Notes under the pieces: model-generated
Databases searched by the model: none
Seen by the model: the letters and a program-made list of their open reading frames with translations, nothing else
Told to the model about the DNA's origin: nothing
IMG/VR virus record: IMGVR_UViG_3300009068_003844
Origin: an uncultured virus (IMG/VR IMGVR_UViG_3300009068_003844)
Lineage: Duplodnaviria > Heunggongvirae > Uroviricota > Caudoviricetes
Reading direction: 5' to 3' (one strand)
Length of the DNA: 60,684 bases
Shown here: positions 21,823 through 43,128 of the stretch, one piece after another
Position numbering within the stretch: the first letter of the stretch is position 1
Layout of the letters: each line of letters starts with the position of its first letter
Made by a program: the position numbers and the translations under genes

Positions 21823-21858
21823 AGAGTCTATTATTGCAGAACTCTATACTTTTGTCAA
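21823..21858 (-). promoter_or_regulatory. sigma70-like promoter directly before the 21595-21822 gene (probably leaderless); second copy near 22741-22776
   Basis: Minus strand reads TTGACA-N17-AATAAT-AGACTCT-ATG at both sites. Confidence 0.55.
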
Positions 21859-22881: not shown

Positions 22882-22919
22882 GGAATTGAGTATAATTTTT
22901 AGGTTTAAAGGAGGTTCGT

Positions 22920-23801
22920 ATGGTTTATTCAAACAAGTTTGTAATGTGTATTATTATTGACGGTAAAATTCAAAAAGAATTAGCAAATGGAACCGTCATC
23001 ATACCCTTTGGAAGTGAATACACAATCAGGTTTAGAAATAAAAACGACCGCAGAGCAGTCGTTAAATTTAAAATAGACGGTGAAAATGCAAGTGCTGATG
23101 GTTATGTTATAAACGCCAACAGTTTTATAGACATAAAAAGATATGCCCATAAAGATTGTGCATTCAAGTTTGTTTCTTTAGACAGTGAAGAAGCAATAGA
23201 TTTTGGAAAAAACGGAAATAATGATGATAAAGTAAAAGGTTTGATTGAATCTGTTTTTTATTTAGAAAAGCAACTTCCTGTTACTTATACATACAATCCT
23301 TCAATTTGGAATAACAATAAGTGGCCAAATACCTCAAATACCTATTGGATGTCATCAACTACCCCATGTAGTTGGAATGCTACTTGTGATTCACACACAT
23401 ACAATAAACACGCTCCTCGATCCCTACACAGAAATAATAATTCAGATCACTCTGGAATCCAAAATTCATATCCAACCCATGATCTAATTCTTAATAGCGA
23501 TATCAAGGACGGGGCTACAGTTGAAGGCAAACCAACGCAGCAAAATTTTTATGAAGTCTCAATTGATTTAGAATCTGATTTTGTTACTTTAAAATTATTT
23601 TTACAAGGAACAAAGCGTATCAATGGATCTTATCCTGTGCATGTTACATCAGATAAAGAAAATATCAAAATAAAAATAGAAAAAGAAAACGAAGATCTTA
23701 GGAAACAAATAGAAGAACAAAAAAAGCAAAAAGAATTAGATTTTCTTTTAAAAGAAAATCTAAAACTAAAAGAAGAATTAGAAAAATTAAAAAATCAGTA
23801 G
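22920..23801 (+). CDS. hypothetical phage protein with coiled-coil C-terminus
   Basis: AGGAGG RBS, 293 aa; hairpin TGAAGGGTCAAG/CTTGACCCTTCA follows. Confidence 0.7.
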   Translation: MVYSNKFVMCIIIDGKIQKELANGTVIIPFGSEYTIRFRNKNDRRAVVKFKIDGENASADGYVINANSFIDIKRYAHKDCAFKFVSLDSEEAIDFGKNGNNDDKVKGLIESVFYLEKQLPVTYTYNPSIWNNNKWPNTSNTYWMSSTTPCSWNATCDSHTYNKHAPRSLHRNNNSDHSGIQNSYPTHDLILNSDIKDGATVEGKPTQQNFYEVSIDLESDFVTLKLFLQGTKRINGSYPVHVTSDKENIKIKIEKENEDLRKQIEEQKKQKELDFLLKENLKLKEELEKLKNQ

Positions 23802-24086
23802 AATTGGAAGATGGATTAAAGAACATGAAGGGTCAAGTTTTAAAAGGCTTGACCCTTCACTATTTCTCAAACTGATTTTTTAATAATCCTCAGTATATTT
23901 CTGGCTAGACTAGCACTTCCTATCATTCGGCCGTCTGTATAATCATCCAAACCATAGCCACCTTTTTTATTCTTCTCAGTTTGTTTGTTTATTGCACTCT
24001 CACAGAGTTTAATTATCTCCAGAATTTTGTCTTTTTCTTTCATAAAAACTAAACTGTGAAGCGTGATAGACTTTAACAAAAGACTT

Positions 24087-24150
24087 CTTTGTGGGTTATA
24101 GACCCAAAGTCAGAAATATAATGAATAACTTTGTGGGTTATAGGCCCAAA
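24087..24150. repeat. two 22-bp imperfect palindromic direct repeats, 42-bp period
   Basis: CTTTGTGGGTTATAG[A/G]CCCAAA at 24087 and 24129. Confidence 0.8.
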
Positions 24151-24383
24151 ATCAAAAAAAAGATTTTTTCATGTTTGTTTAAAGTGCCTTTTTTTATGGG
24201 CATATAGAAAGAAAATAAAAAGAAAATAAAAAGATGAAAAAGGGTTGGCGTGGCCCCTCCGCTTTATAGCCGCTCTTTATTCCCTCTATTATCTCCATTT
24301 TTAGCTTTTGACGGCTTTTTAATCTTTTTTAATCATCCCATAGCCTGATTTTTAATAAGGCTTTAAACAGCCTCTAATAGGCT

Positions 24384-25112
24384 TTAAACAAGAAACTCTT
24401 TTATACTCTTGCTTAATCCCTGTTTTTCCCAGAGTTCCATATACTTTAATCTGCTATATTCATGTATTGGATCATATCCCCTGTTGTATGTGCTAGGGAG
24501 ACATGTTTCAATGAATAAAGGTACGTTTAAACAAACTCCACTAGTGAATAAAAGATTTTCAACTATGGGCATAAGATCTGTACCCTTGATATCAAACAAA
24601 AATTCATTGTGATTCACCATATAACTCTTTAATAGTTTTTCTGCATAGGTCCTCTTCATCATACAACTTGCACCCCAATCATAACTATCTCGGGTACGAA
24701 TGTTTAATTCTGGCTTATTTGCGTTAATACTATTAATTCTGATTAATTGAACAACTTCCCAATCTTTTGGTAAACTATAGAGGAATTCATTCCAAGTAAA
24801 ATTCCAATAATGACTAGTAATGAAACTGGTATCATCTTCTAGGAATATTCCGTATTCCTCACTTGTTTCATCTAGCCAATTCTTAATGCACCTTAAAAAC
24901 GTTATGTTTGTGCCATGATGATTGACACTTTCAATATAAGGGCCAGTTATTTTGACCAGTTCCTTGTATTCTTCAAATCTTTCTGTAGAGAATCTTTTAT
25001 AATTTGTGATATTATATTCTTTGAATTGATTCTCCATAAACAGAAAGCGATCCTTGCTTTCTTTTAAATTTATATAATTAATTCTTGAACTCTGGTTGAA
25101 CTTGAGACTCAT
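24384..25112 (-). CDS. glycosyltransferase family 25-like
   Basis: 'YINLKESKDR', 'IFLEDD', 'LPKDWEVVQL'. Confidence 0.75.
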   Translation of the reverse strand: MSLKFNQSSRINYINLKESKDRFLFMENQFKEYNITNYKRFSTERFEEYKELVKITGPYIESVNHHGTNITFLRCIKNWLDETSEEYGIFLEDDTSFITSHYWNFTWNEFLYSLPKDWEVVQLIRINSINANKPELNIRTRDSYDWGASCMMKRTYAEKLLKSYMVNHNEFLFDIKGTDLMPIVENLLFTSGVCLNVPLFIETCLPSTYNRGYDPIHEYSRLKYMELWEKQGLSKSIKEFLV

Positions 25113-25498
25113 GCTCCTAACTTAGTATATTTATTATTTTTCAAACGATATCCCGGAACACCACATAAACTGAATAGGAGTGCTTCTTCACCATTCTTTG
25201 TTGAAAAGTCATGGTGGAAATTGTTTACTTTCTCATTTGTGGCTTTAGTTACTATTTTCAATAGTTCACACTCACCAGATTCAATTAAGCTCTTTCGCAT
25301 CTCTTTTGCGATTATATTACCTCTTTCTGTGCTTAGGAGAAGTTTTTCACAATTTGTAAAATTATTCTGTGTGACCACTAGTATATTGTTATCAACTGAA
25401 TGGACTTTAATGTCTTTGGGTCCTCTGCCTAAGAACACAATGTAGAACCTTGAAAAATCCTTACACATCAGTTCTTCTGCTTCACCTTGAGTTTTCAT
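25109..25498 (-). CDS. DUF2294 family protein
   Basis: 'MKTQGEAE..LGRGPKDIKV..HHDFSTKNGEEALLFSL'. Confidence 0.75.
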   Translation of the reverse strand: MKTQGEAEELMCKDFSRFYIVFLGRGPKDIKVHSVDNNILVVTQNNFTNCEKLLLSTERGNIIAKEMRKSLIESGECELLKIVTKATNEKVNNFHHDFSTKNGEEALLFSLCGVPGYRLKNNKYTKLGA

Positions 25499-25704
25499 TC
25501 TTTAGTTCCTCTTCTCACTTCCTTGTGAAACCATCCTCCGCATAAACACTCTATGCTGTCCAAACCCCCTAGTCAAGGTACCACATTTGAGTTATTTTAT
25601 TTTTTTTGTATTAAAAATATAATTTATAAATGTTTCATACCTGCAAGTCTCAACTTTGCCGGACATGATGATGACTATAGTGTTCATAGTTTTTTGAATT
25701 TTTC

Positions 25705-25785
25705 CCTAAGTCTTTTGTTCACAAGGACTTAGGAGAATTGGCTTTTTCCTATTTTCCCTAAGTCCTTATTTCACAAGCATTTAGG
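25705..25785. repeat. two tandem 29-bp palindromic sites (11-7-11), 52-bp period
   Basis: CCTAAGTCTTT-TGTTCAC-AAGGACTTAGG (25705-25733) and CCTAAGTCCTT-ATTTCAC-AAGCATTTAGG (25757-25785). Confidence 0.85.
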
Positions 25786-25899
25786 AGAATTTCTTGGTTT
25801 CTGCTTGAAAAAATGTTTTGCACGTTCTATATAAACTTATGATGTATTATATAACATTTATAGACTTTGTTGACATGCCTGACGAAAGTGAGGAATAAT

Positions 25900-26190
25900 A
25901 TGAAAACATATAAAGAATGGAAAATTAGTGAAGATGTGATGAGCAGATCAGGATTCCTTAGTCATAACAAAATACCTCATGGTGAATATCATCCAAAGAA
26001 CTTTGACAGATACAGTTTCAAACCAGATGAAAAAAAAGTTCAAGACTATCTTTCAAAAATGAAGAATTCAATTCTGAATGATGTTTTAATAGGAAGTGAA
26101 GCATTGAGCGGATTTTATAATAATGATCAAATTGTGAAACTATTAGACAATTATTTGACAGAACTAGCTAATCTTGGAGTCAAGTTTTGA
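25900..26190 (+). CDS. small protein with capsid-targeting-like N-terminus
   Basis: MKTYKEWKISE, GAGGA RBS. Confidence 0.65.
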   Translation: MKTYKEWKISEDVMSRSGFLSHNKIPHGEYHPKNFDRYSFKPDEKKVQDYLSKMKNSILNDVLIGSEALSGFYNNDQIVKLLDNYLTELANLGVKF

Positions 26191-27318
26191 AGGTTTCTTC
26201 TTTTCTTTTTGGTACGGTCTCTTGTCATGGAAACTAGTAAAAACAGTATGCTTGCCAGTTTCGACCAGAAACTCGCTGAATACAAGACTCTCCTAGAGAA
26301 TCACGACTGGTATTACAGTTGGAGCGACGATAATAGGGTCTGGCGTAATGGTGAACAGAACCTCAAGCGTCTGAAAGAAATTGCAGAGTTTGGTGGTTTG
26401 GCTTACCAGATCCTGTTTAACGAGGAATACCAGAAGCATTTTAATGAGGGGTGTTTTAAGACTAGTTTTTCACACACTGGTAATCCCTCTTGTTCAACTC
26501 CTCCTTTTAAAGTCTAGAGTTTCCCTCTGGTACGCTTTTTGACCATGCAAAACATTAGTATCTCCTGCCGACTCTGCGGTGTGAAGAAACTTATTAGTGT
26601 TGATCCCTCCACATATGTGAAGTGGAGTATGGGACAAGGTTTTATTCAAGACTTGTTTCCCCATCTTAGTGCAGATGATCGGGAATTGATGATTAGTCAG
26701 ACTTGTGGAACCTGTTTCGACAACTTGTTTCCACCGGAGAATGATTACGATGAAGATTAATCCTCGTCCTGACTGGATTGAAACTGGCCTTAAAGTGCGT
26801 CCAGATTGTTATCATTATATTCGTAAAGTGAGTCTAGTCACCTCTACTGAAGGTAGCGGTTATTGGAGTGGTGTAGTTAAAGACTTTGTGAAGATAATCG
26901 AACTTGATTTGAACACTTACGAAGGACACGATGATTGTTTTGAATTAAGGGCGTATTTTTCCAAGAAAACTTGGAATGTTGAAAAGCATGGTTTGATTTA
27001 TACCGATAAACTTTGGCTGACTACCTTTAAGAAAAGTCTTATTGATTTAGGTTTCAGTAAAAAGGGACTCAACGCAGTAGACTATAGTGAACAGGGTATG
27101 CAGGGCGAGGATTATGTGAGTATGGATGTATCAGCACCAGGTGAACACGATCAAATTGAAGTTTTCATTAAAGATTACGAAAAAGTTCTTTATAGTGTCA
27201 AAGACAGGTTTTTAGGTAGTTTAAGAAAGAAGTAAGTTTCCTTTTGGTACGGTTGGTGGTTGTTCCCGATTCAACGTGAGTCTGGAAGAAAGGGTTGTTA
27301 AAGAGGGAGTTTAATACT

Positions 27319-27573
27319 ATGGGTCGTGCTAAGGGTCAGGCTGGTGTGTCGCTGGAGCGTTTCCTCACCTGTGTCATCGAGACGCAGCGGGCTGGCGGTA
27401 GTGTTGAAGATGTTGCGAACGAACTGGGCATTGTGGCCGGTTCGGTTTCGGTGCGTCTTTCGCAGTTGCGGAAGAAGCATGGTCTGAATATCCCCCGCTT
27501 TGAGGGTGGTGGTCGGACTAGCAACACCGCTGAACGGGCAGCGGCTATCCTTGCCTCGCTTGGGGTTGAGTGA
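27319..27573 (+). CDS. small HTH DNA-binding protein (paralog family)
   Basis: 'GGSVEDVANELGIVAGSVSVRLSQLRKKHG'; ATG at 27319 after GGGAG; GC-rich. Confidence 0.85.
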   Translation: MGRAKGQAGVSLERFLTCVIETQRAGGSVEDVANELGIVAGSVSVRLSQLRKKHGLNIPRFEGGGRTSNTAERAAAILASLGVE

Positions 27574-27586
27574 AGGATTTAATCTT

Positions 27587-27618
27587 CTCCCCTCCCCCTT
27601 TAATGTGGGGGAGGGGAG
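27587..27618 (+). terminator. GC-rich hairpin after the HTH gene
   Basis: CTCCCCTCCCCC/GGGGGAGGGGAG. Confidence 0.6.
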
Positions 27619-27674
27619 GGGTTGACGAAAAGTTTGTTTCTGGTACGGTAGTGTTTTGTTGTTGATTAAGTCGG

Positions 27675-27747
27675 GCGACCCTAGCTCAATTGGCAGAGCA
27701 CGAAACTTTTAATTTTGGGGTTCTGGGTTCGATTCCCAGGGGTCGCA
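27675..27747 (+). tRNA. tRNA-Lys(UUU)
   Basis: Acceptor GCGACCC/GGGTCGC, D stem GCTC/GAGC, loop CTTTTAA, T arm CTGGG-TTCGATT-CCCAG. Confidence 0.92.
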
Positions 27748-28320
27748 CTCTTTGTTTTTTCTCCAATATCCTCTTGGTGGTTTGGTTAGATTATATTTCT
27801 TTACCCATTTACCAACAGCTTTATCAGATACTCCATATTGTTTAGCAATTTGAATGGTTGGCATTTCCCATACAAGTTTTTTTAGTAATTCTTTTGTGGG
27901 CCATTCAACCTTCCTTGGTCTTTGTTTTTTTATTTTTTCTTTTCTAGGTTTTTGATTCTTTTTGTCAAACTCCCAATGACAATTGGGACAAAGAATTAAA
28001 ATATTAGACTGGTCATTCACCTCAGATATTAAAGTTTCTTCTGGGAATGAGTGGATTGGTTTAATGTGACAAACTTCAACGTGTTTATCGTATCCGCAAA
28101 ATTGACACTTTATATTCCTATATTGAACCCTGGCTCTGTTTCTGACAACATTAAATTTTGCACTTTGTCCATGCAGTGCTGATACCATCGCATCTTTGAT
28201 TGTTAGATATTTTATTTGACCATTATTGCAGCATTTGATACAATGTTTAGACAAGATTGTTTTGTGTTTACCACAGGAACATAAATCATATTGATTTGGG
28301 TATTTTGAAGCAGGATCCAT
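27709..28320 (-). CDS. free-standing HNH endonuclease with C-terminal HTH
   Basis: 'CQFCG..EVCHIKP..NILILCPNCH'; HTH 'IAKQYGVSDKAVGKW'; 3' end overlaps tRNA-Lys in antisense. Confidence 0.85.
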   Translation of the reverse strand: MDPASKYPNQYDLCSCGKHKTILSKHCIKCCNNGQIKYLTIKDAMVSALHGQSAKFNVVRNRARVQYRNIKCQFCGYDKHVEVCHIKPIHSFPEETLISEVNDQSNILILCPNCHWEFDKKNQKPRKEKIKKQRPRKVEWPTKELLKKLVWEMPTIQIAKQYGVSDKAVGKWVKKYNLTKPPRGYWRKNKECDPWESNPEPQN

Positions 28321-29498
28321 ATCCTAAAATAGTAAAAATTTTCTTTCCCTCTGGTACGGTGAGTGAGCATGGAAACAATCCAAAAAGAAAAACTCCTCAC
28401 CAGTTTTGTTGAAGTTAAGAAAATTTATCTTCATGCTCGTCGATGGTTTCAACGCTCTTATGGTAATACCTACCATACCGTTGAAATTTGGGTAAATGAC
28501 CATTTGGTTCATAAGATTCCTTTCACTTATGGGTATGGGGATCAATGGTCATACAATGCCGGTAAGTGGCTTGTTGATAATGGTTATGGACGTTTTAGTG
28601 GATACTATCCCATCAGCAGATATTGCCGAGAAAGTGGAATAGAGTATAATCATACTGTTGAGGATGTTAAAAGAAAGAGGGATCTTTAATGAGTGATCAA
28701 CATTCTAATTGGTGGCACAAATTTGTTAGTGGTATGCCTCCACTTAACAAGATTAGCAAGGACTTTGAAACTTCGACACTTACATTTAGTGAAAAAGTCG
28801 CAGATTTACGATCTAGAATCAAAGAGTTCAAAGAACAAGTTGAATCAGAGACTAAGGCTTTTTATAAGAAGAAGAAAAAAATTCTTCGTCGTGACCCTGC
28901 CCGCCCCTGGTAAAAAGGAAATTTAATTATGACTACCTTGACTAAAATTGAAATGCCAAACGTAGAAGTTCTTCGTAAGACTGGTTATAAGGTTCGTGTT
29001 TATCACGGACGGGTTTATCTCCGTTGTGTTACTCCGGATCATGCTAACTCTCCAGAAATTATTCACGAATATATGAGCAAGCGTGAATATGAACAATTTA
29101 ACAACTTAGTTCAAAGTGTGAACTGGGAACTCAGTTGCAAGGGCGGCTTTACTATTGTGGAGATTACTACTCCTGATGGTCGTGATCTGAGGGGTAAGTT
29201 TAATGTTCCAGCAGGCGGAATGTTTAATCGTAAACTGGGTGTGAAGATTGCTACTAATCGGGCTCTTAAGAGTGGTGTTTAAATGTATTGACCAATATCC
29301 TCTATTAGATTATAATAGAGGTATTATGGAAAAATATACTTGGATTGTTTGGAAGAACAACCGAATAGCAGGGTATGTATCTGCTTATAGCGAATGGGAC
29401 GCAAATAGATTCGCCAGAATGAAGTTTGGTTGTGAAATCTGGGTAGAGAGAACGGTAGAATCTGGTACGGTGTGAGGGTGTCACACGGAGAACTCTAG

Positions 29499-29729
29499 AT
29501 GCTAGACGATATTGACTTTAGTGATTTCATTCTTGGTGGTGAAACTGAAGCCACTCAGAAGAAGAATAAGAGAATCCCCCTTGACGTTTTCCTCAAGAGT
29601 ATTGTAGAAGCCGTTAAGAATGGCGGAAACAGTATTAGTGTTGCAAATGAATTGGGGATCTCTCCTCAAGCAGTAAGGCAGCGTTGTCATAAACTCCGGG
29701 CTAAGGGAGCCCCTGTGCCACAATGGTGA
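29499..29729 (+). CDS. small HTH protein (paralog family)
   Basis: 'PLDVFLKSIVEAVKNGGNSISVANELGISPQAVRQRCHKLR'; motif at 29464. Confidence 0.8.
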   Translation: MLDDIDFSDFILGGETEATQKKNKRIPLDVFLKSIVEAVKNGGNSISVANELGISPQAVRQRCHKLRAKGAPVPQW

Positions 29730-30009
29730 ATCTTATGGATAAGGAACAGGCCATACTCTTTTGCAAGATCGCCAGTAAACTTTCTTATTCAAAGAGTTTA
29801 ACTCAAGATAATATTCTCAAGAATAGTTTAGACGATATTCTCGAGATGATTAGTTTGTATTGTGATACTGCTCCTGATAATCTACTTCGTAATAATATCG
29901 ACGTTGTTATGGAGCATAAGAATTGGCAGATACAAAAGGGTTTGGTACAATAAAAAACCCCAAGAGGTTAGTCTTGGGGTTAACACCGAATGTGTTTTTA
30001 GTTAAATTA

Positions 30010-30465
30010 TTAGTTACTTAGTCTTAAGAAACCATTTCTTACTACAACGTATTGCATGGTGTGTGGATCGCCGTCACCTGAGTGAATAACGAAACCAGCT
30101 AAACCATTGTTCTTCCAGTTATCATAGTTATCGAACTCATCGTCAATACCATACTTGTTATAACGAGTTCCATTGACCTTAACGTATTTTTCAACGTGAG
30201 GGCCGTGGTTTGGTCTTTGACCATTCTCGCCTTGTAAAGCACCTTCTTCGTCGCATTGTGTTAGTATAACACTATACATATCTGGATTTAAAGGTAATAC
30301 TTCTTCTAAATCAACTGTGATCCACCAATTGTTAGTTTGTCCGTCTGATCCTACAGTTCCTGTTCTGGCAATGCCAGCAGCGACAATGTGAGGGCCAGCG
30401 GCTGTTAAACAAACTTGGTTAGGGGCCATTCCTAAACCTGTGCCTTGTGATGTTGTTGCACTCAT
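30010..30465 (-). CDS. hypothetical protein
   Basis: AAGGAG RBS, 151 aa; terminator-like hairpin near 29955-29982. Confidence 0.65.
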   Translation of the reverse strand: MSATTSQGTGLGMAPNQVCLTAAGPHIVAAGIARTGTVGSDGQTNNWWITVDLEEVLPLNPDMYSVILTQCDEEGALQGENGQRPNHGPHVEKYVKVNGTRYNKYGIDDEFDNYDNWKNNGLAGFVIHSGDGDPHTMQYVVVRNGFLRLSN

Positions 30466-30534
30466 AATAAAACTCCTTTTAAAAAAACATGATTAACGTC
30501 ATTGTTAATCTATAGGTATATACTATTCTAAACT

Positions 30535-31002
30535 TTATTTATATCTATTTTTCCTTCCTTTGCCTCTGTTTCTTCCTTTAAAAGTTGCAGTTATTGAATC
30601 GCAATTATTACATATAATTCTCATGTTAGATAAATCATGATTTTCAGCATTACCATCTATATGATCACAAACTAAGGGAATTCTGACTCCTAGCCATTCC
30701 GATAATCCGCACATTATACACTTATGTCCATGTGTTTGTATTAAGTATTTTTTTATTAATTTACGAGCATGATATTCACAAAACGTTTTATATTGTCCAC
30801 TTTCTATTTTTTCTTTTAAACTGGCGGAGGTTATTTCATCAAATTTTTTGCCTTTGTTCCAAGGTATGCAACCTTTTTGAACACCTGCTTTTGGTGATTT
30901 TATTCTTTTGACTCTTTTGGGATTATTTTGACAACATAATTCATGAGATGCAAGAGAGCCTTTATTGTTTATAGTTCTATTGCAATATTTACAGCTATTC
31001 AT
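30535..31002 (-). CDS. free-standing HNH endonuclease
   Basis: 'CIMCG..LVCDHIDGNAENHDLSNMRIICNNCDS'; AAGGAG RBS before MNSCK. Confidence 0.85.
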   Translation of the reverse strand: MNSCKYCNRTINNKGSLASHELCCQNNPKRVKRIKSPKAGVQKGCIPWNKGKKFDEITSASLKEKIESGQYKTFCEYHARKLIKKYLIQTHGHKCIMCGLSEWLGVRIPLVCDHIDGNAENHDLSNMRIICNNCDSITATFKGRNRGKGRKNRYK

Positions 31003-32668
31003 ATATACTCCTTTTGATTTTTGGTTATATGTATTATATATACCAATCAACGCATTAAATCATTCTCTCAACCACATAGTTTCTGGTACGGTTGGAGTTT
31101 CCCGACCTCCCTCTTGAGGAAGAAGATGCGTAAGATTGAACAAGAGATGATTGATAGCATCTTGAACAAGAAGAATCATTCTTGTGGCAACACTAGGGTT
31201 GAAGTTGCCGATGATGTGATTCTTGTCTTTTTGTTTAATAACCTGATTGCTAAAATTACCAACAAGACTGTAGGGATTAATAATCAGGGATACACTACAT
31301 ATGTTACCAAGAGCCGGCTTAATTGTATCCTTCGTAAATTTTGTGAAGGTAGAAATATTTACCAGAAAGATTTCAACTGGTATATTAGTGGCGAGCCCAT
31401 ATTAAACAATAGTTCAGAATACCCCAGTAATGTTTGGAACTACTTTCCAAATGTGGTACTGTTGAAAAGTTTTGAATGAAACAATACATTGTAATCAATA
31501 CAAATAAACCATATGTTGATGGTGAGTATCCTTCCGGTGGTTTTGAAATATATTTACTGAGTGCCTTCCCCGGGTCTGAAAAAGAGTTGTATATTGACTC
31601 TAGTCCTGATTGGGAAAGTGTTTCAAATTTTGTGAAGATGGTTAGTAGAAATTCTACTATTCAGGTTGAATACAGGTCTGCTAAATAATAGTAATGTTTT
31701 ACGTTCACATTTACTATGAACAAGGGCAAATCAAATACGACCCATATGAAAATCCAGAAAAATTACATAATTTTTTGGATAATCTTCCTTATGATGAAAA
31801 TTTAATTGTCATGGAAACAGTTAAGGAAGAAACGGCCCGATAGTTTTTGGTACGGTAGAGTAGTAACGAAAGGATAGAAAAAATGGAACATTATCGTTAT
31901 TATTGCACTGTTAAACTCAACAACATTGAGGACAGGCTCAATATTTATAACTGCGATCCCGGTGATGCCACTATGTGGTACGGCGGAATCTGTGAAGTTA
32001 TGGAAATCTTTGGAGGTACGGTTAGTAACCTTATGGGTGAACCTGTAACTCAGGATCAAATCCTAGAGGAATTTAGGAAGGAAGAAAGTGATGCTAAACT
32101 TAGTTTCTGCCTAGCGACTGGCATGACCCGCCGTGATGCTAGTTCTGTGACGGTTAGTTTCAAACCTTCTGTGAATGAAATTGTTTCTTCTGCGAACCCT
32201 GTAGACGAAAATAATAACAATAGTCCACTAAGGTTTGCAGAATAATATGAGTATGCTACACCCTAAAGTAAAACTTTTCTTATCAAAAGGTTTCGGAAGA
32301 AACTTTATAATCGGTAATCATGTCCGTGGATTTAGGGTTACGGTTAGAGATGGCGATTATGGCGAAGTAACTTTTAGTACAGGCAATGATGTTGAAACTT
32401 TAATGCTTGATTGCATTAAACAGTTTGACAATAGTGTGAAGATTAAAGAAGCCGAAAAGGTTAAGAGACTAGCGAGAAGGAAGAAGGAAATACAGAAGGA
32501 ACTTGAAGAAGTTTCAACTGAGTTAACGAATATAACTCTGAACTCATTCCAGAAATAAAAAGAAATAAACAGAGAAACTTGTCTTTTGGTACGGTTGATG
32601 GACGTTGCGACGGTGAGCCACTTCGGCAAACGGCAACAAAGGGTTGAATAACGCAGGAGATTACTACT

Positions 32669-32923
32669 ATGGGTCGTCAAGTTGGACAGAAGGGTGTCGC
32701 TCTGGAGAAGTTCCTGACCACGGTGGTCGAGACGCAGCGGGCCGGCGGTTCGGTGCAGGACGTTGCCGATGCTCTGGGCATCACGGCCGGTTCGGTGTCG
32801 GTGCGTCTCTCGCAACTGCGGAAGAAGCACGGTGTGAACGTCCCCCGGTTCGAGGGGTCGGGCCGCACCAGCAACACCGCAGAGCGGGCGGCTGAGATTC
32901 TCGCCAGCCTTGGGGTTGGTTGA
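32669..32923 (+). CDS. small HTH DNA-binding protein (paralog family)
   Basis: Near-identical to the 27319 and 37832 proteins; very GC-rich; motif at 32588. Confidence 0.85.
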   Translation: MGRQVGQKGVALEKFLTTVVETQRAGGSVQDVADALGITAGSVSVRLSQLRKKHGVNVPRFEGSGRTSNTAERAAEILASLGVG

Positions 32924-32955
32924 AGTTAAAGGCTGATATAATAATCGGCCATACG

Positions 32956-32990
32956 AACCCCCTCCCGTAAAACGGAGGGGGTTTATTTTT
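32956..32990 (+). terminator. intrinsic terminator
   Basis: AACCCCCTCC/GGAGGGGGTT plus T-rich tail. Confidence 0.75.
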
Positions 32991-33034
32991 TATTTGTTAT
33001 AGACTATATTGTTTTTGGTACGGTAAACAACCAT

Positions 33035-33106
33035 GCCCCGTTCGTATAGAAGTTAGTATACTGGGCTTTCATCTCAGGGACGCCGGAGCGTTACCGGCAC
33101 GGGGTA
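33035..33106 (+). tRNA. tRNA-Glu(UUC) with non-canonical T loop
   Basis: Acceptor GCCCCGT/ACGGGGT, anticodon stem CTGGG/CTCAG, loop CTTTCAT, T arm GCCGG-AGCGTTA-CCGGC. Confidence 0.85.
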
Positions 33107-33644
33107 CTTTTAAACAACATGAAACGATCAAATAACTATTCTGTGAAAGAAGAAGGCCGCTGGTTTGTGGTTTATAAGGATCACAAGCCAGTTACCGATA
33201 AAGGTGATATTCACCAAAAGCCATTTGTAGTTAAATGGCAGAATAAAGAATCAGCCGAGAAGTATATAAAAGAATTAAACAAAAACTTTGACGGTGAAAC
33301 AATCGCCAGTCTGTATTCGGTACGGTAGAAAAACATGAACACATGGAAAAGCAGTCATAACTTCCCTCCAGAAAAGGATCAGGAAGTTTATTACTTCGGC
33401 CCTAATATTGGGATCGGTATTGGCAAATACCATTATGAAGAACGTGAAATAAAGGGGACTAAACTTTGTCCTCATATCTTTGTGAATAATAAGTTCGGAG
33501 TAGTAGACGCTTGTGATGCTCCATTCTGGATGCCTTATGATAATGAAAAGGCTAAAGGTTGGTGTCCAATCATTCCAAAAGAATATACTAAGGGCATATA
33601 CGAGAACGATTGATTTTGGTACGGTGTGGAGTCAACGAGATACA

Positions 33645-33779
33645 AACTGTGTGTCTGCCGACAGTAGAGAGATAGCCCAGCAAACAGCGTCTGCATCTAA
33701 TGGGTGTATGGGGTTGCCGAACTAGGCTATGGTGAGGCTTATGCTGCTCTCTATCCGGGTTGGATTCCCGGCACAGATT
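33645..33779 (+). ncRNA. tRNA-like RNA of about 135 nt with a large structured insert replacing the anticodon arm
   Basis: CTGTG/CACAG acceptor-like stem, T arm CCGGG-TTGGATT-CCCGG, TAGAGAG/CTCTCTA and ATAGCC/GGCTAT helices. Confidence 0.55.
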
Positions 33780-33863
33780 CAATATAAATGCGTCAGGGGT
33801 CGGATAGAAACCTAAATAAGGTTGAATAGTGCGTGATACCGGACACTATTTGTGAAACTATCG

Positions 33864-33942
33864 TGGAGCGTAACTCAACTGGATAGAGTTCCACTTGCTT
33901 TAAAAGCAAGAGGAGTTATGGGTTCAAATCCCATCGTTCCAT
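33864..33942 (+). tRNA. atypical tRNA with UAA anticodon (Leu-reading), extended anticodon stem, no long variable arm
   Basis: Acceptor TGGAGCG/CGTTCCA, D stem ACTC/GAGT, TCC-A-CTTGC[TTTAAAA]GCAAG-A-GGA, T arm ATGGG-TTCAAAT-CCCAT. Confidence 0.7.
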
Positions 33943-34937
33943 AAGTCGATCCATTCTCAGCCGGTATATCAATACAAAAGGAAAATAATGAGAATAACCA
34001 AGAAACAAATAGCAGAGGCTCTTGGTATTGACTGGCCTGTATCGTCAAAGGATACTGCTATTGCACTACGAAATATCGAGACAATCCTTGATAATGTCGC
34101 TGAAAATCTTGAAAATGATTTTGAATCTGCGGCTTTGGGTGACGCTTCTAATCTAATCCAAATGATCAGGGAATGTCTAAAGGATAGTTGATTTTGGTAC
34201 GGTTGTGTGAAAGACAATAAAGGAAGATAACATGAAAACTGTATTTGTTGTTTTTGACCCAGTTCATCCATACACTAACTTCAAGGTTTATCAAAACATT
34301 GAAAATGCTGCGAATGATCTGAGGAACAATGGTTTTACGATTGACTTCTTGCATGAGGAGTTAGACCTCTTAGCCTCTGCCATATTCCTTGCACCCAACT
34401 GGAATCGGGGGCAGGGCTTAGTATACAAAAACAAAAATACCCCTGAACAAAGATTTTTGTATTCTCGCTTGGTAGAAGATTGTGAAGAAAACAAAAACTA
34501 CCTCGCAGATAAAAATGAAGATTTGGCTTGTTAAAGATAGTTGATTTTGGTACGGTTGTGGGTTGTTCCGAAACAAACATTCTTCAAAGGATTAGAAAAT
34601 GTTTTACCTTCAGATTGCCAGTTTAGTTGTTGGATTACTTGTTGCTTGTCTCCAGTGTGGTAAGGAAGCCGCCCCTGTTGTTCATACGATTGTGGAGGCA
34701 AGGAAGTATCATCGTGTTGAACCCCAATACAATGTCTATAGGGGCTATGATAATAACTACCGGTATTGGAGTGATTCTACCGGAACATATTGGTGCAGGG
34801 TCAATCAGCAAGGCTCTATGGAGATTGCTGTGGTAAATCAGTCCTCACAATCTCAGCAGCAGATTATGATTTGTCAGACGCCCAACAACACGATTCGTTG
34901 ATTCTGGTACGGTTCCAACTTACTCAAGGAGAATAAA

Positions 34938-35111
34938 ATGGAAAACTGGACTGTTATCGACGATACTAAACTCCGTCACGTTTGGCGTTGTGCAGATTGT
35001 GATTGTGTTACTCATGTTACTCCGTGGTGGTATGAAGATGCCGGAACCCCGGTATGCGAAAAGTGCGGTGAAGATATGAAGTATCTTAGCACAGAGTTCA
35101 ATAACATCTAG
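34938..35111 (+). CDS. small Zn-ribbon-like protein (below the ORF-track cutoff)
   Basis: MENWTVIDD..CADC..CEKC; AAGGAG RBS; TAG stop overlaps the next motif. Confidence 0.65.
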   Translation: MENWTVIDDTKLRHVWRCADCDCVTHVTPWWYEDAGTPVCEKCGEDMKYLSTEFNNI

Positions 35112-36685
35112 TACGGTTCCACCTTACCCAAGGAGCAAAAGATGAACACTGAACTGGAACAAATCGCACGGGCTATCATCGGCATTAGCGTTGCCGATCT
35201 TACTAACGCCGAAAGAATCATCTATAAGATTCTGGAGAAGCGTAACATCGTTTGTGAACGGGGTCATTATGTTGAACTTACTAATGATCCAGAACTCAAT
35301 GCCCACTATGATGAAATGGAAATATATAGTCAGAGTCAAGAGTGGCCCGAAGATTATCCTTTTTAGTACGGTGAATAAATATGAAAATCATTATTGAAGT
35401 GAACATGGACAACGCTAGTTTTAATGATAACCCCAACGAACTGGGTGAGATTCTAACTCAAATCCCCTCTAACATTAAAGCAGGGGATGATGGGGTTCTC
35501 AAAGACTCTAACGGCAATAAGGTGGGATTCTGGGACGCATTTGAAAGTTTCTAGTACAGGTATCCTATAAGCGGTGGAAGTCAAAAACGCCACTGGACGT
35601 TAGACCAGTATGGATACTTCTAAGGAAAAGAAAATGTATCGTGCTTGTTTTATCTTTTTTGTGTTCATTCTACCGATTCTGAATATTGTATTTTGTCTTG
35701 GATTTCTCGCAGGAAAGTTTTCACAATGAAAAACTGGATTTGCTACAATCTGTTTGGTGAACATCCAGATGATGTTGACACGTTTGGTATGGTTAGTGGT
35801 CTAGGCATTTTGGCTTTCTTGATTTTCTGGACTAGTTATCTTTTTATCTATATTCCTCTTTATTTCTGTCGCTAAAGGATTGAACTAATGGATACCATTG
35901 ATACTCTCAAGATGCTCAGGATTTTTGTGGATACTGCTCCCCTGAATAGTCAGGGTATGGTTGAGCCTGATACTCTCAACTTCATTAGCATGAGGCTGGG
36001 TAGTATTGTTGAAACTCTGGAGCGAGAAAAAACTCTCTCTGATGAACTCCGTCAGATTTTGGTACGGTAAAGATTTGTCCTAACATCACTAAAGAGTAAT
36101 AAAGATGACAACAACAGACATTTTCATCATCGGTATGTATCTGACTAGTCTTGTTGGTATGGTTGTGATCGTAGCGAGTTTCTTTTGGGCGATTGATACT
36201 TTGGTCAATGCACTTTACAAGCCAACCTCTAAGATTAAAACCATGATTGCTGAGGATGGTACTGAATGGCAGGTGGGATATATTGACGAGTTCCCCGGCT
36301 ATAGAGAACTTTTCTAGTACGATCAATCATCAAGGAGAAACACAATGAACGACTTCTACGATGGATTCTATGAAGATTGGTGGGGGACTAAGAACGTGAA
36401 GGGTCACGACGCCCACAAGGGATACAATAAACACGATCTTGCCTCAAGGAAAAACTATCGGGACAAGGTATTAGAATACCTTAGACTGGAGTTTTGTGAT
36501 ATTGGGGATTGGTGGCATCTTCCCGTTAAGGGCGTTAATATCAATAGGGTATTGTTAATCAACCTTATTAACGACTGCCAGAATGATAATATGAAGATCA
36601 ACAACGCCAGCGGTGTTGTCTATGAATGGCTGAAGGGCCGGAATCTGATTTAGTACGGTGAATAGGCAACAGAGGAGAAATAACA

Positions 36686-37006
36686 ATGCAAGAACAAGTC
36701 GAACTTTGGCTCGCTGCTTTGACTGAGAAGTCTAACACCACTGGGGCTGAGACTAAATACATTCTTGAACCGGGGCGAAAGTATACTAGAGTGGTTCGTC
36801 AAGAGCGTTGGCTGGATAGTAACGGGGAACCGCTGTGGGGTGCTAACAAAAGTGTCCATGCCTTTATAGACGAAAATGGGGATATTTATAAGGCAGCAAG
36901 TTGGAAGGCTCCGGCCAAAAATGGAGCAAGATTTAATGTTGTGAACGATATTCAAAGGTTGGTCGAAGTTTGTGATCCCTATGGTAGTTATCTCTACAAG
37001 AGGTAA
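36686..37006 (+). CDS. conserved phage hypothetical protein
   Basis: 'GRKYTRVV..SVHAFID..GDIYKAASWKAPAK' resembles a family common in T4-like myophages. Confidence 0.7.
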   Translation: MQEQVELWLAALTEKSNTTGAETKYILEPGRKYTRVVRQERWLDSNGEPLWGANKSVHAFIDENGDIYKAASWKAPAKNGARFNVVNDIQRLVEVCDPYGSYLYKR

Positions 37007-37831
37007 GATCAGGTAAGATCAGGTACAGTTATCAACCAGAGGAGAATAACAATGCTTTGGCAAAAGAAAAAGAATCGGTATAATACAAAGCCGTATTACG
37101 AAGCAAAAGAGGGAGATATTGTGTATCAACTCCGATATGTTCCCTTCAAGGGTTGGCAAGCATCAAGGCAGGAAGCCAATGTTTGGACGATCCCGGGAAT
37201 AAAGAAGGACATGGCGGAGGCTATGGGCTGGTGTGAGAGTGACTTTTCGGTACGGTAGACTATCGTTCCAATAAAAAAGGAGACGATTGATGCCAGATGA
37301 ACTTGCAAAACCTATTGATGCAATGCGGGAATACGCACTTCATGTTGGGGCCGAACATCCAGAACGTCAATGGATTTTAACTGATTATGATGTTTGGATG
37401 CCAAACCCGTTTTTCAACGGTGTTCCCGGCCCTCACCCCGAAGATTAGTTTTTAGTACGGAGCAGAGATATGGAAAACAGTTTTTACGGTTTCTGGAGAG
37501 AAAAAATGCCAGACGATACAAAAACCAGTAGTGGTCTTGACCGATACACTCTTGGTTTCCTTGAAGATTATTACGCAAGGGAGACTGTGAAGCCGGTTTC
37601 AAGCCTTATCGAAGCCGCTACACAGTTTGAAAAGGAGCCAGAGTTTAAGAACTATCTGGCTATGAGGGATCTTTTTAGGGAGATTGAAGCAAATATGACA
37701 CGGAGAGACGGTTTCCGTTGTCATAATCGGTAAAGGATAAGATTCGGTACGGTTAGGGTTTGTTCCGACAGCAAGCCAATGAGGCAAGCGGGAACCAAAG
37801 GGTTGGTAACTATAAGCAGGAGATGATTACT

Positions 37832-38092
37832 ATGGGTCGCCAAGTTGGTCAGAAGGGTGTTGATCTTGAGACGTTTCTCACCACGGTTATCGAAGTGCAG
37901 CGGGCTGGTGGCAGCGTCGAGGACGTTGCAAGCAAGTTGGGCATCGTTCCGGGTTCGGTGTCGGTGCGTCTGAGCCAGTTGCGGAAGAAGCACGGGCTGA
38001 ATATCCCGAAGTTTGAGGGTGGTGGTCGCACCAGCAATACCAAGGAGCGTGCGACGGAGATTCTCGCCAGCCTTGGCGTCGAGATGCTCTGA
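37832..38092 (+). CDS. small HTH DNA-binding protein (paralog family)
   Basis: MGRQVGQKGVDLETFL..; motif at 37746; hairpin CTCACCCCCCGGCC/GGCCGGGGGGTGAG at 38104-38139 follows. Confidence 0.85.
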   Translation: MGRQVGQKGVDLETFLTTVIEVQRAGGSVEDVASKLGIVPGSVSVRLSQLRKKHGLNIPKFEGGGRTSNTKERATEILASLGVEML

Positions 38093-41000
38093 AGTTAGTC
38101 ACACTCACCCCCCGGCCAAACAATAGGCCGGGGGGTGAGGCCCACGGGGTTTCCCATGGGTACGGTTTCTGGTTCCTGGTCGAAGCCGGGAATCTGACTG
38201 GTTGTGAATACCTGAAGAGTCTTCAAATGATGTGCTTCCTTGGATTGTGTAGCGGTATTATTTCTATTATCATTGATAATAACAACCCACGCTAAACAAT
38301 CTTCGACCGTCCCGTTTGGGGATTCACTAGGTTCAATCCTAGCGGTCGATTTTGGTACGGTAAAGACTTGTGAGCCTTACTTTTACTTTTAATAACTAGG
38401 ATTAAAAATGAGAAGCACAATCGAGGATCATGAGTTTGCTGTTGAACAGTGGAAGAACGACAATGCTTGCTGGCTTGATGGGGAGCCCGCTAAAATCGTG
38501 GGCTTCCTTGAGAAGTTTCCTACTGTGGCTCAGTTGAACGGCCCAAAGAGTTTTCAGTGGAGTTGGGCTGCCGTTAACAGGATTATGAGCAAAGACCGAC
38601 AGTTCAAATCATAAAGATTTGGTACGGTAAAACTTCAAAGGAGAATCCAAATGTGGCTTGCAATGGTCATTCGTGACAGTGTTCCTGAGAGTGTTACCAG
38701 TTTCGACAACTACTATGATGCAGTGGGTTGTGCGGACGATTGGATTATTAAGTTTGACCCGTCAGTAACTCATTCAACCCTCCCCCGATATTCTAGGGGT
38801 GAGAGTTACCATAAGGATGGTTTGAGGGTAGATATTCTAGAAATCAACTAGAATCCGGTACGGTCGGGAGTTGTTACCCGAAACGAAAGGAAATCATGGC
38901 GTTAGAAACCACTATTGATGATCTGGTTCAGCGGTTCGGAGAAGAGCCGTTCCCATGCACCTTCATCCATCGGTTCGACCCCGAAAGGGTGGCGGCATTC
39001 GACCGTGAACGGGCGGTACACTGGCTCATCGGCAAGGTCAATGGACCGAAGATCATGTTATCACTCCTGCCGGATCGTCTTGTATTTGAGGAGTTGATTG
39101 ATTCATTGGATTCCTACGGATGGAATCTGCTGGTCGAGGGCGGCATGAACTATCGAATCAAGAGGCATGACTAGAATCCGGTACGGGTTAGTGTTGTTCC
39201 CTCCACTTCTCAGGAGTTAGAGATGAAAGTTACTAAGACTCGTCGCCTGAAGTTGCTCAAGGACATGGAAGCCTCAAAGGAGATTCACAATCGGGGTCAC
39301 TACACTGTCAACGAGCGGGTTCTGGTCAATGCGATTGTCAACATCATCCAGAATCAGCGTGAAGTTGAAGTTCCGGTCGAGTTCGATCCGGTAATCAACC
39401 CGCTCAACGATGAAGTGCTGAGTGTCATCACGGGTTGATGATCCCTACGGGGATAGTATCTAGTACGGGTTATAGTTGTAACCAACACCACTAAGGAATC
39501 AGACAATGCCGTGGCAAATCGTTGATGAACCCAAGCCAATCAAGTTCTATCCTTTTGAGACAGAAAACGGCACAGAGTTTCGCCGTGTTGGTGGCTTGAT
39601 GGTAAAGGGAACCATCCGACACTCCAAGGCGAGCGAGGATCAAGTCTGGCGGGTTGTTTATACTAATCGGGCCGGAAGAGGCACTTTTAGTATTACGGCT
39701 CCAGATCGCACCGTAGAGCGTCAGAATCACAAACTGGACTTTGTGAAAGTAAAGGCTAAGGCTACGGTCTACAGAGAGGGTAATCGTAAGGGCGGAATGA
39801 CCCCAACCGCATTTCAGCGGGAACTAGCAGAAATGTGTGGGGGCAACTTTGCCGGTAGTTTCTATGGTCAAATGGTCAATGCCGTGAAAGTGGCACTAGG
39901 GGCAGAATAAAGACTCTCCCCCGATCATATTGGTGATTCCACGCTAAGCGTAGAGTTTTCATTATGATCGGGGGATTTTTCTTTTTAGTTTTTGGTACGT
40001 AGATTGGGTGTGAACCATTAACCACGGAGCCAATACCATGCTTACTGAATGGGAAGTTTACTGGCGAGTCGGCGTTGTCGGGTATGTATGGGCTGCTAAC
40101 AAGAGAGAAGCACTGTATCTTGCAGTTAACCTATACGGTGAACTGGCTAGTGTTAAAAGCAACAACCCTAGTTAAATCTAGGGTTAAACTTTATGTTTTT
40201 GGTACGGTAAAAAACCAAAAGGAGAAAAGTGATGACCCCAGAGCAAAAAAACATCATCGACCGGGCTCTTAGCACTCTTATTTGGGAGACTAAGAAGAAT
40301 ATTCTGGATACCCAAAATAGTGGGGAGTATGACTCCGCAGTAAAGAACTTCCTCATTGAACAGAGGAAGTTGCTGGAGGAAGCAACCCTGCTCCGTAAGG
40401 AACTCAGGGAAGATAATCTTTGGAATCCAGTACGGTAAACTCTTGTCTTAACCCTAGCCCAAAGGAAAAAACAATGTTCAAGAACATCAAGTGGTTCGAT
40501 GGTTTGTCTTGGGTCAGTGGTTATATTCTGGAGATCATGTTCAAGGACGGTAAAAAGGGTTATATCAAGAATACTGACCGCAAAAAGATTAGTCATCTTT
40601 TTGAAACTTTGTGGAACGACCATAACATCATCGGTTTGACCGTCTACAATATTGATGAAAAGGTTGAGGACGCTAAGTATCGTTATCTTGGTTGAAATGA
40701 ATCAGGTACGGTAAACTCTTGTTCCATCAACAAAGAGGACTAAAAATGACTACCGTTATCACTGGCCTGAATGTTGAAAAGTATCGTCTGCTCAGTCTCA
40801 AGAGTGCATTGAAGTTGGAGACTAAGGGACTCAAGCACTCAAGGTTCAACGTCAGCCAGATTGTGAAAAGAATCCTTCAGGAAAAGGGAATCAAGCCTAA
40901 GAATAATAAGATTGAACTGCTTGTCCAGTTTGAATCCTACTTGGAGGGGGTCATCTGAGGCTTTCGGTACGGTAAACTCTTGCCGATAACTCTGGGAGTT

Positions 41001-41367
41001 TCATCATGAAGAAGTATGAAGTAACCTGTTGTGACACGGGTAAAACAATAGTCTTGACTCATAAAGAGGCGGTCGAAAAGTTCGGCAAGGTTGAGTTCAA
41101 AGAGATTCTGAAAGGATACCTTCCCCATCTGGTCGCTGTTGAAGTATTCAGTACGGTGGATGGTTGTGAACCCAACACTCAAAGGAGAGTCTAATGGATG
41201 ACTTTGATATGATGCAAGAAACAGTCCTCTGGCCTTGGATTGACGATCCAAGTTATGACAATGAAGATGCAGAGGATGAATGTAACTATGATCCAACGGA
41301 AGAAGAAAACTAGTACGGTAGATTATCGTTGATTGAACCATAACCATAACCATAAGGAACCAAAACC

Positions 41368-41613
41368 ATGAAGCGTCAGACTGTTAGCGTTGAAACGTTC
41401 GTCAATGTCATCATGCGGCATCTCAACAATGGTGGGAACCAAACCAGTGTTGCTAAGGAGTTGGGAATCACTCCGGCAGCGGTTTGCCTCCGTCTCAAGT
41501 ATCTCCGTCAGAACGGTGCTTGTGTTCCCAAGACTAAGAAAGAGTTGAAGTCTCGCCGGAACAAGGCAAGTATCGTGGCCGCTGCCAACAAGGAAATGAA
41601 GGGTTGGAAGTGA
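41368..41613 (+). CDS. small HTH protein (paralog family)
   Basis: 'VSVETFVNVIMRHLNNGGNQTSVAKELGITPAAVCLRLKYLR'; motif at 41312; GC-rich hairpin follows. Confidence 0.8.
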   Translation: MKRQTVSVETFVNVIMRHLNNGGNQTSVAKELGITPAAVCLRLKYLRQNGACVPKTKKELKSRRNKASIVAAANKEMKGWK

Positions 41614-42101
41614 AAAGGGGAGAGGGGGGAGAAACAAAAAACTCCCCCCTCTCCTTCTGGTACGGTTAATGTTTGTAACCTTAACCAAAAGGAAGTTTCA
41701 AATGCGTAAGACTCGTTGTGCTGGCAAGGCGGTTGGAATGAGTTATTGCAAGCATCTTCGCAAGTTTGGCAAGCGGGTCGCTAACAAGGCAACCCGCCGG
41801 GAAAAGTTCTAATCTGGTACGGTTGAGTGTAAGGAACTTCAACCTCTGGAGAAAACAGATGACTCCTGTTGAGATTGCCATTAAGGCCAAAGACTTCTTG
41901 AAGGGTAAAAAGTATCCTTCAGAGAGAATGATCCAAGACGCATTAGAAGCCAGCATGGTTTCTTGTGGTATTGATCCCGAATCGGGTGCGGGGATGTTTC
42001 TTTATGGTCTGTCCTTGAAGTGTCTAATCAAGATGGCAGGGTGATAGTATCTGGTACGATTACTGAGTGTAAGGAACCTTCAACCCTCTGGAGTTTAGAA
42101 G

Positions 42102-42575
42102 ATGAACGACATTCAAATGCTGGCTCTGAGCAAAGTGAAGTTCGACCGGGATAACATTCCGGTTGGGGATCATACGGTTGATTTCACGGTTCGGGTCAGT
42201 GGAACGGTCAAGGTTGGCGACGATTATGAAAGGGACGCTACCACTAGCATCCCTTGGCTGGAATCGGTGGCTCTGTGGCAGGAAACCGCTAGTGCTGCTT
42301 GGGATAGCCTTATCAGTCGCATGGATAAGGGAGAGACTATCACCCGTAGTGATCTGGTTGCCATGCGTAAGACTGGCCCACTTGCCACTGGGGTGCTCGT
42401 AGATTGCATTAGAACGGCGTTGGTCAAGGGGGAGTCTGCGGTAGGGTCTATCCTTGATCGTGTCACAGAAGTCAAAGAGGGCGTCGAGAACGTGAAGCGG
42501 GAGTTGGTGAAACAACTCCCCAAGCAAAGTTGCAAGGGGGCAACCAAGGTAGTCTGCGATTGGCAGATAGTCTAG
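42102..42575 (+). CDS. hypothetical protein, last gene of the motif array
   Basis: GGAG RBS, motif variant at 42053, hairpin AAGGGGGGAG/CTCCCCCCTT follows. Confidence 0.65.
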   Translation: MNDIQMLALSKVKFDRDNIPVGDHTVDFTVRVSGTVKVGDDYERDATTSIPWLESVALWQETASAAWDSLISRMDKGETITRSDLVAMRKTGPLATGVLVDCIRTALVKGESAVGSILDRVTEVKEGVENVKRELVKQLPKQSCKGATKVVCDWQIV

Positions 42576-43128
42576 GTTGTCTAAGGGGGGAGGGGCTAAA
42601 CTCTCCCCCCTTATTACTGGCGGGTAGGATTCTGGTACGGATTCGTGGTATGTGAGAAAGAATCCGGTACGGTTCTTTGAAAAATGAAAACAGTTTTCGG
42701 TACGGTATATTTTTACAAAGTTAAAAACTGAAAAACTAAAACTGAAAAACCCTGGGGGTAGGGTTTGGTACGGGTACCGGTTCAACGCCATTACGCCCTT
42801 TTTCTTTTCCCTTTATATTTCTTTTTCCCAACCCATGAACTTTTTAATGAACTTTAAAGGGGGTTTCTATATTTTTTCAAAGTATATGAGAGTTAACTTT
42901 AAACCCGCCCCACTAAACCTATAATTTTCTAAAAACGGTTTCTAAAAAAATCCGGCGGGTATAATTTTTGAGATACTGTAGGGTTTTTTACAATTCCCCA
43001 TCAGGAGAAGGCTGGAATACATTATAGTCATATGTTAACTCTTCCCCAGCTTTCATTTAATTTTGTTTTAACGTATAGCATATGTTTCTCCAGTATCTAA
43101 TATCTATGATAATTTACTCTCATATGTT

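Follow-up and report, generated by a model that had tools for sequence, protein, structure and literature searches.

Does a short motif that recurs at nearly every gene boundary of a viral gene array act as a recombination site through which genes are shuffled? This question was raised by a row of small genes in a 60,684-nt stretch of DNA (the window) from the uncultured virus record IMGVR_UViG_3300009068_003844, in which the hexamer GTACGG occurs 48 times on the plus strand and never on the minus strand (75 and 6 times in the whole contig) and heads about 35 tiny genes. A preliminary description had proposed that units are duplicated, excised or swapped at this motif, resembling integrons, with the stop codon lying in the recombination site. 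Comparison with relatives supports one part of this proposal: in the relatives G001 and L052 the motif is where units come and go and are at times duplicated, and the same joints are found in contigs of the runs X6 and X13. Integron-type shuffling is not supported. This turnover probably stems from recombination over short homologies and from template switching, both acting on a repeated, probable promoter in a manner similar to the PeSL elements of T4-type phages.

The window is part of a linear viral contig of 251,265 bases (G000; estimated completeness 50%), which encodes a gp23 capsid protein, a T4-type gp20 portal, a T4-type terminase, baseplate parts, a primase and ligases. Judged by this gene content, the source is a T4-like jumbo phage. 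Identity to the window is about 94% in two close relatives, G001 (323 kb) and L052, and about 75-80% in G002 and L054; the capsid proteins of the distant relatives G004 and G005 are 77-79% identical, G005 being covered over 340 of its 390 kb. Records of the own lineage are 50-64% complete, and the three records that are at least 90% complete are all distant relatives. Contigs of X6 and X13, which stem from two other studies, were compared for the same joints. The runs containing the array come from metagenomes of freshwater or other aquatic sites. An assembly artefact was dismissed, as run X4 covers the window alleles without differences and X6 and X13 again show the short alleles.

Gain and loss of whole genes at the motif

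Alignment of relatives had been named in the preliminary description as one way to see whether breaks fall at the motif. About half of the gap ends did so, whereas many other breaks lay off it. Counted from the first G of GTACGG as position 0, collinear gap ends fell within -15 to +19 in 12 of 24 cases for G001 and in 14 of 30 for L052, against a background of 0.097; the two comparisons share events and are not independent. Of 58 gaps relative to G001, 13 lie in the 15 kb of the array, and only 2 of the 45 gaps outside it have an end at the motif. Because nearly every gene boundary carries the motif, a harder null was used, which demands that both breaks are intergenic and that one core stays intact. 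Whole-gene insertions and deletions (indels) between 29.0 and 42.6 kb were tallied by hand and compared with breaks placed randomly in intergenic space. Two motif copies were fused in register in 7 of 12 indels, compared to 0.092 under this null (p = 3e-5). These events lie at 34550, 36653-37455, 37250-37455, 38355-38622, 39181-39463 (absent in register from L052), 39995-40202 and 41817. Four of the remaining five are out of register but break within -15 to +19, and the fifth (29283) lies at a sigma-70 promoter. L052 also lacks 41817-42054, with an offset of 15 bases from register. The joints at 37258 (in X6, 37258-37464), 38350-38359 and 39980 were recovered in contigs of X6 and X13.

The position of the crossover within the motif varied. 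In the order of the events, the best windows were -14 to +13, -4 to +6, +9 to +10, -4 to +10 and either -1 to +11 or -9 to -5, the last depending on the reference copy; the event at 39995 was noisy and that at 41817 uninformative. The second and third windows, which belong to events with one and the same right-hand copy, are disjoint. Rearrangements off the motif were common in this DNA as well: 35186-36005 is deleted at a microhomology of three bases, 45 bases are tandemly duplicated at 40225, and L052 carries a 77-base patch at 38890, the halves of which match genes at 40474 and 40232, approximately 1.5 kb downstream. In addition, a gene for 50 amino acids lies directly ahead of the sigma-70 promoter at 29288 in relatives, G001 among them, and about 79 kb away in G000; this shift is a true translocation, off the motif.

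Nearby copies had been reported to share extended flanks, and this was confirmed. Exact identity extends over 25 bp between the copies at 34197 and 34550, over 17 bp between 38858 and 39181 and over 16-17 bp among 40430, 40706 and 40967, while the flanks at 34907/35111, with a leader common up through the ribosome site, and at 41817/42054 are shared with mismatches. The array set comprised 35 copies (29465-42054), after two copies inside genes had been removed by hand (31978, 32377) and two had failed a pyrimidine filter (32016, 38160). In this set the mean exact run around the core was 4.47 for adjacent pairs, whereas the mean over all pairs was 2.55 (permutation p = 5e-5). Simple identity over 20 bases of adjacent copies gave a weaker signal (p = 0.07 upstream, 0.02 downstream). 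Neighbours also share more than expected by chance in G001, L052 and L054, and weakly so in G004 and G005.

Extra genes are flanked by duplications of 4, 12, 12, 14, 27, 38 and about 90 bases. In G001, an extra gene at 41817 encoding 51 amino acids lies between 38 exact bases, 30 of which belong to the closing part of the gene upstream; another unit added at 40963 carries a 4-bp duplication and an insertion at 27643 one of about 90 bp, mismatches included. In L052, an extra unit at 34550 lies between 27-bp exact repeats, and a 405-bp gene was inserted at 33026 with a 12-bp duplication of +8 to +19. Empty tandem duplications were also observed beside the core: 14 bp at 38355 in G001 and X13, in place of the unit 38408-38614, and 10 bp in the window (37005-37021). 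The coding end of a neighbour would not arrive with a foreign circle that has a promoter of its own, which argues for duplication during insertion, and we infer that two alleles of one site were joined or that the template was switched. Neighbours would then share flanks because insertions duplicate the local promoter, leader or gene end. Elsewhere in the contig, direct repeats of at least 10 bases flank indels in 9 of 21 cases, compared to 2 of 60 random pairs; duplication is therefore not peculiar to the motif.

Promoter-like signals of the motif

The array copies follow the consensus G-W-T-Y-Y-R GTACGG T, with seven free bases and then a pyrimidine-purine step (+14, +15). They are intergenic, ahead of genes and tRNAs, and only a few are preceded by hairpins. 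Besides the dispersed long-form copies of the window (Table 1), a further 16 lie upstream of it in the contig, giving 24 that head genes across the 90 kb upstream. The pyrimidine-purine step was present in 32 of the 35 array copies (background 0.23, p = 1e-17), 20 of the 24 dispersed copies, 26 of 29 copies in G002 and all 29 in L054, and no other offset from 10 to 19 approached this frequency. The conserved block stops nine bases short of the inferred start, and a -35 signal was absent from the array copies at every spacing from 13 to 21. The restriction to one strand, the intergenic position and the fixed step together argue for a promoter. The motif is thus probably a phage-specific promoter with its start 15 bases after the first G, and transcription start looks like its first job, a role absent from the preliminary description. 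ATG is placed exactly at +15 in 4 of the 35 array copies, so that some genes appear leaderless. A search for a reader in the own lineage gave no match, and promoter function is presumed from sequence signs.

Promoters of T7-like, phiKZ and AR9 polymerases form one contiguous block, spaced constantly from the pyrimidine-purine start downstream of it. The array motif is likewise a single block with fixed spacing that differs per lineage, whereas no phage RNA polymerase match was found here and relatives carry sigma-70-family proteins. A sigma-54 promoter, a canonical sigma-70 promoter and an attC core were dropped as readings of the motif, since spacing and conserved positions do not fit these consensus sequences. 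The helix-turn-helix (HTH) family was considered as a candidate motif reader; a structural model reached a pLDDT of 71, generic HTH matches were weak (best E 0.08) and the Atlas matches were viral clusters. Use of the long motif by a host was rejected: 49 single matches in GTDB genomes came from unrelated taxa at chance level, none titled Planctomycetota. A Planctomycetota host is a conjecture based on a PF10057 protein and prepilin-leader proteins; a host-genome search with the PF10057 protein gave no match.

The same layout with other motifs was found in the distant relatives. G004 carries 102 copies of TRA TACCAACTAG, many with a hairpin, and G005 carries 101 copies of WTASCTTAGTTGTACCA, with ATG on the start step in 25 of them. 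Both encode sigma-70-family proteins, one of which in each genome lies behind the lineage motif (G004:C1 266969-267826 and G005:C1 199740-200753, both adjoining AAA/RuvB-like genes). Pattern scans for close kin of the two arrays returned only these two records and two single matches, and a composite-pattern scan mostly single matches.

Mechanism and competing explanations

We consider it probable that general recombination acts on this repeated promoter. Each small early gene would have its own motif copy, in a packing so tight that the gene end enters the next copy. The copies are the most frequent short repeat of the region, and a break there would leave a complete promoter-gene unit. Short-homology recombination and template switching by general enzymes would then add or remove whole genes at the copies, giving the gains and losses observed. 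Joining of two alleles, or a template switch that returns slightly upstream, would duplicate the resident promoter, leader or gene end, as seen in the duplications. Small deletions may afterwards draw stops into the core; the indels are observed, their direction is presumed. A dedicated recombinase would not take part and reordering would be rare. RecA is encoded by the near-complete G004 and a RuvB-like gene is present in G001.

Several points weigh against this mechanism or against the promoter on which it builds. The events are few, most may be either gains or losses, and a crossover window can be displaced by point changes that came later. Exchange of the RecA type would have to act on short shared runs of 6-14 bases, and RecA was found in only one of five records. 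Neighbour sharing in G002 was not significant (p = 0.12; 0.32-0.38). Two tRNA genes of G001 start at +4 and +6, upstream of the proposed start, and would therefore need another promoter. A sigma factor was unmatched in G000, G001 and G002 (tblastn and a two-sequence hidden Markov model), RNA polymerase was unmatched in five records, where the positive control of one search likewise matched nowhere, and there was no RNA run among the runs listed as containing the stretch. A motif-to-motif back joint, the sign of a mini-circle, was not among the matches listed, which are contigs only and drop rare forms.

Alternatively, a dedicated gene-capture process might insert foreign open reading frames (ORFs) at the motif and duplicate the target, be it promoter, leader or the end of the upstream gene, in the style of a loose target-site duplication. 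The repeats around single extra genes (38 bp and about 90 bp with mismatches in G001, 27 and 12 bp in L052) and the empty 14- and 10-bp tandem duplications beside the core would fit such a process, as does the finding that adjacent copies are each other's best match above chance on both sides. However, the duplications vary in position and in length (4 to about 90 bases), indels remote from the motif have similar repeats at their flanks, and the 45-bp duplication and the microhomology deletion lie off the motif within the array. Moreover, reverse transcriptase and Cas1 were each found in 0 of 5 records, three of which are at least 90% complete but distant. Gene capture is therefore regarded as unlikely. 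The same holds for a broader version, which we consider doubtful, in which a jumbo-phage clade would run an integrase-free capture array: a lineage-specific promoter, a dedicated insertion that copies promoter and leader, captured genes expressed at once, and an array thickening and GC-rich toward a fixed A/T-tract boundary. The reader would there perhaps be a virion-delivered sigma factor or activator, because in G004 and G005 the lineage motif precedes the sigma genes too; the boundary may be a genome end or origin.

Recombination might also have no bias at all, with random breaks among which selection keeps whole promoter-gene units. The gap ends away from the motif (about half), the five out-of-register indels and the scarcity of the motif at gap ends outside the array agree with this. 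It is nevertheless improbable, as the in-register fraction of 7/12 was obtained against a null (0.092) in which breaks are already confined to intergenic DNA and the core has to stay intact.

The proposed integron logic leaned on stop codons inside the motif. All TAG/TACG stops described before (35109, 35364, 36315, 36651 and 41311) are present, with one more at 35552 that had been missed, and the C-termini encoded by GTA-CGG-TAR end as described in SVR (33328), LVR (36070), SVR (37258) and PVR (40438). In 11 of the 35 array copies the upstream stop lies in the core or directly after it, and in 26 within -20 to +8; for five copies no upstream ORF was found. TAG arises where an A precedes the core; such an A is present in 10 of the 35 array copies versus none of the 24 dispersed ones, and is thus tied to packing. 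TAG at the core is used as a stop in 6 of 8 cases (p = 0.02 against one frame in three), while stops at +6 are unremarkable (TAR present in 12 copies, used in 4). That the stop belongs to a recombination site is not supported by G002, in which orthologs keep their own stop outside the core: that of the 35888 gene has 15 extra bases and its own stop, and that of the 36345 gene stops 7 bases earlier. Stops in the core number 4 of 29 copies each in G002 and L054. In G004, TGA or TAA forms the first three motif bases in 35 of 56 array copies, so that overlap is the rule there. Stops in the core are best read as a result of tight packing, not of design.

Integrons require an integrase, a folded attC site and a fixed crossover, according to PMC4792948. 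Tyrosine recombinases (PF00589) were found in 0 of 11 records, including 0 of 3 near-complete relatives, the own contig being about 50% complete, and serine recombinases (PF00239) in 0 of 5. A common junction fold was absent, as only 2 of 12 junctions beat shuffled sequences (z of -1.9 or lower). The preliminary description, too, had seen neither attC hairpins nor an integrase. It had further held that a fixed gene order would speak against shuffling; shared genes are indeed collinear in five arrays, with a single order change between G002 and L054, yet units come and go. The strain-specific units are scattered over 33-42 kb with no single entry end. The array resembles integron arrays in its single-orientation row of small genes bounded by a repeated element, of which single units come and go, but a motif cut by a site-specific recombinase, with stops in the site by design, is very improbable: in-register fusions, core stops and their prevalence in G004 would suit it, and an enzyme could lie outside the half-complete contig, whereas disjoint crossover windows, off-motif breaks, the lack of reordering, of an entry site, of a recombinase match and of a shared hairpin, and the promoter-like signal carried by every unit all oppose it.

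Related systems, features of the array and implications

PeSL elements, as described in PMC2839356 and PMC4122927 for the T4-type phages RB49/phi1, T4/PST and KVP40/nt-1, are intergenic promoter repeats in variable regions with variable crossover points and no integrase. The array shares with them the T4-type phage, intergenic promoter-like repeats in a variable region ahead of small genes without family, genes gained and lost between neighbouring repeats, a variable crossover position, the absence of an integrase match and additional rearrangements off the repeat. It differs by sharing 6-25 bases, where PeSL sharing is spread over about 100, by stops that often lie in the core, by some apparently leaderless genes and by a motif that differs by lineage (G000, G004, G005). 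Mini-circles belong to the PeSL picture, while the array is known here from contigs only. As sigma-70 -35/-10 boxes are missing and most copies lack the stem-loop, the array is best classed as a PeSL variant, not a PeSL member. A search of open papers found none on this clade or motif, and the available text of PMC12619734 and 10.1101/2021.09.01.458585 does not describe the element.

Features of the region are listed in Table 1. Most array proteins have no family match. The leaders of three HTH-type paralogs are nearly identical, which points to duplication of whole units. Third-position GC climbs along 29000-42600 (0.36, 0.42, 0.55 versus 0.29-0.31 elsewhere), and a rise toward the array end was also observed in G004 and G005; recent arrival fails to explain it, since relatives have kept the GC-rich genes of the array end. 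Three arrays stop abruptly at non-coding A-/T-tract DNA with short inverted repeats (window 42780-43056; G004:C1 358800-359100; G005:C1 316700-316950). In the window's lineage this DNA is conserved in G001, G002 and L052, and in L054 the array end (14800-16394) is a series of non-coding repeat units that contain numerous copies of the motif. The boundary is a possible genome end, packaging site or origin.

An Rfam scan returned tRNAs and a group I intron and nothing else. The intron match (44600-44792) and several HNH-type genes (27709-28320, 30535-31050, 44825-45508) lie beside tRNA genes and are strain-variable. Motif-headed non-coding stretches at 33630-33860, 35570-35620 and 38175-38345, kept in G001 and L052 and partly in G002, are Rfam-negative candidate small RNAs. 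Elsewhere, a Volactin-family actin-like gene (L004:8233-9237, minus strand), an MscL-like channel gene (L007:6925-7395, minus strand) and, in G001, a Tad3 anti-Thoeris match (L038:7339-7848) were noted. At the window end (60669-60684), 10 of the last 16 bases deviate from the genome record, within a tandem repeat.

Table 1. Features of the array and its surroundings (window positions unless a contig is named)
Feature	Position	Strand	Remarks
Gene for 50 amino acids	L028:2570-2722 and L010		L010 in G000, about 49.5 kb upstream of window
Dispersed long form, AGTTTCYYTYYG GTACGG T	2170..28359	+	2170, 7088, 11925, 13856, 26212, 27247, 27643, 28354
HTH-type family, 8 in contig	7161, 27319, 29499, 32669, 37832, 41368		two more upstream of window
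Canonical sigma-70-like promoter	29288..29316	+	TTGACC-17-TATAAT, separate, ahead of ORF 29326
Dense array	29465..42773	+	small genes and RNA genes, most with one motif copy ahead
Two minus-strand genes	30010..31050	-	151 amino acids and HNH endonuclease; missing in G001, L052
HTH-type paralog	32669..32923	+	followed by hairpin terminator 32955-32984
Motif copy and tRNA-Glu	33018..33107	+	G001 carries a different tRNA-Glu starting at +4
ORF ending SVR	33119..33328	+	stop inside copy 33320; next ORF begins at +15 (33335)
Unit 34232-34534	34183..34560	+	between copies 34197/34550, 25-bp exact repeat
Three units	34907..35556	+	ORF ends TAG/TAC at 35109, 35364, 35552
ORF ending LVR	35888..36070	+	ends in copy 36062
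ORF ending at TAG/TACGG	36345..36653	+	
Three units	36653..37460	+	absent from L052; in-register fusion at 10-bp shared run, window -4 to +6
Unit 37290-37448	37250..37464	+	absent from G001 and X6; crossover window +9 to +10
HTH-type paralog	37832..38092	+	81% identical to 32669; followed by hairpin
Unit 38408-38614	38351..38631	+	between 14-bp repeats; missing in G001, L052, X6, X13
Units 38896-39174 and 39223-39438	38847..39468	+	copies 38858/39181 share 17 bp
Unit 40038-40175	39988..40207	+	between 12-bp repeats, after hairpin 39917-39975; missing in G001, L052, X6, X13
Three copies sharing GTACGGTAAACTCTTG	40430..40982	+	ORF 40232-40438 ends PVR
Copies 41817/42054	41787..42093	+	related leaders
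Array end	42585..43056	+	hairpin, four close motif copies (42635, 42667, 42700, 42768), then A/T-tract DNA

This analysis adds base-level evidence against a fixed site, a duplication signature and a conserved gene order. Small early phage genes are seen here to be renewed, at base level, apparently without an integrase: the repeated, probable promoter serves as the joint, and insertions copy the local promoter. Read as probable PeSL-like recombination, this would extend PeSL-type evolution to repeats of 6-25 bases without sigma-70 boxes, in three lineages with three motifs. The reader of the promoter is a concrete target, and the array marks candidate genes for host takeover and anti-defence.

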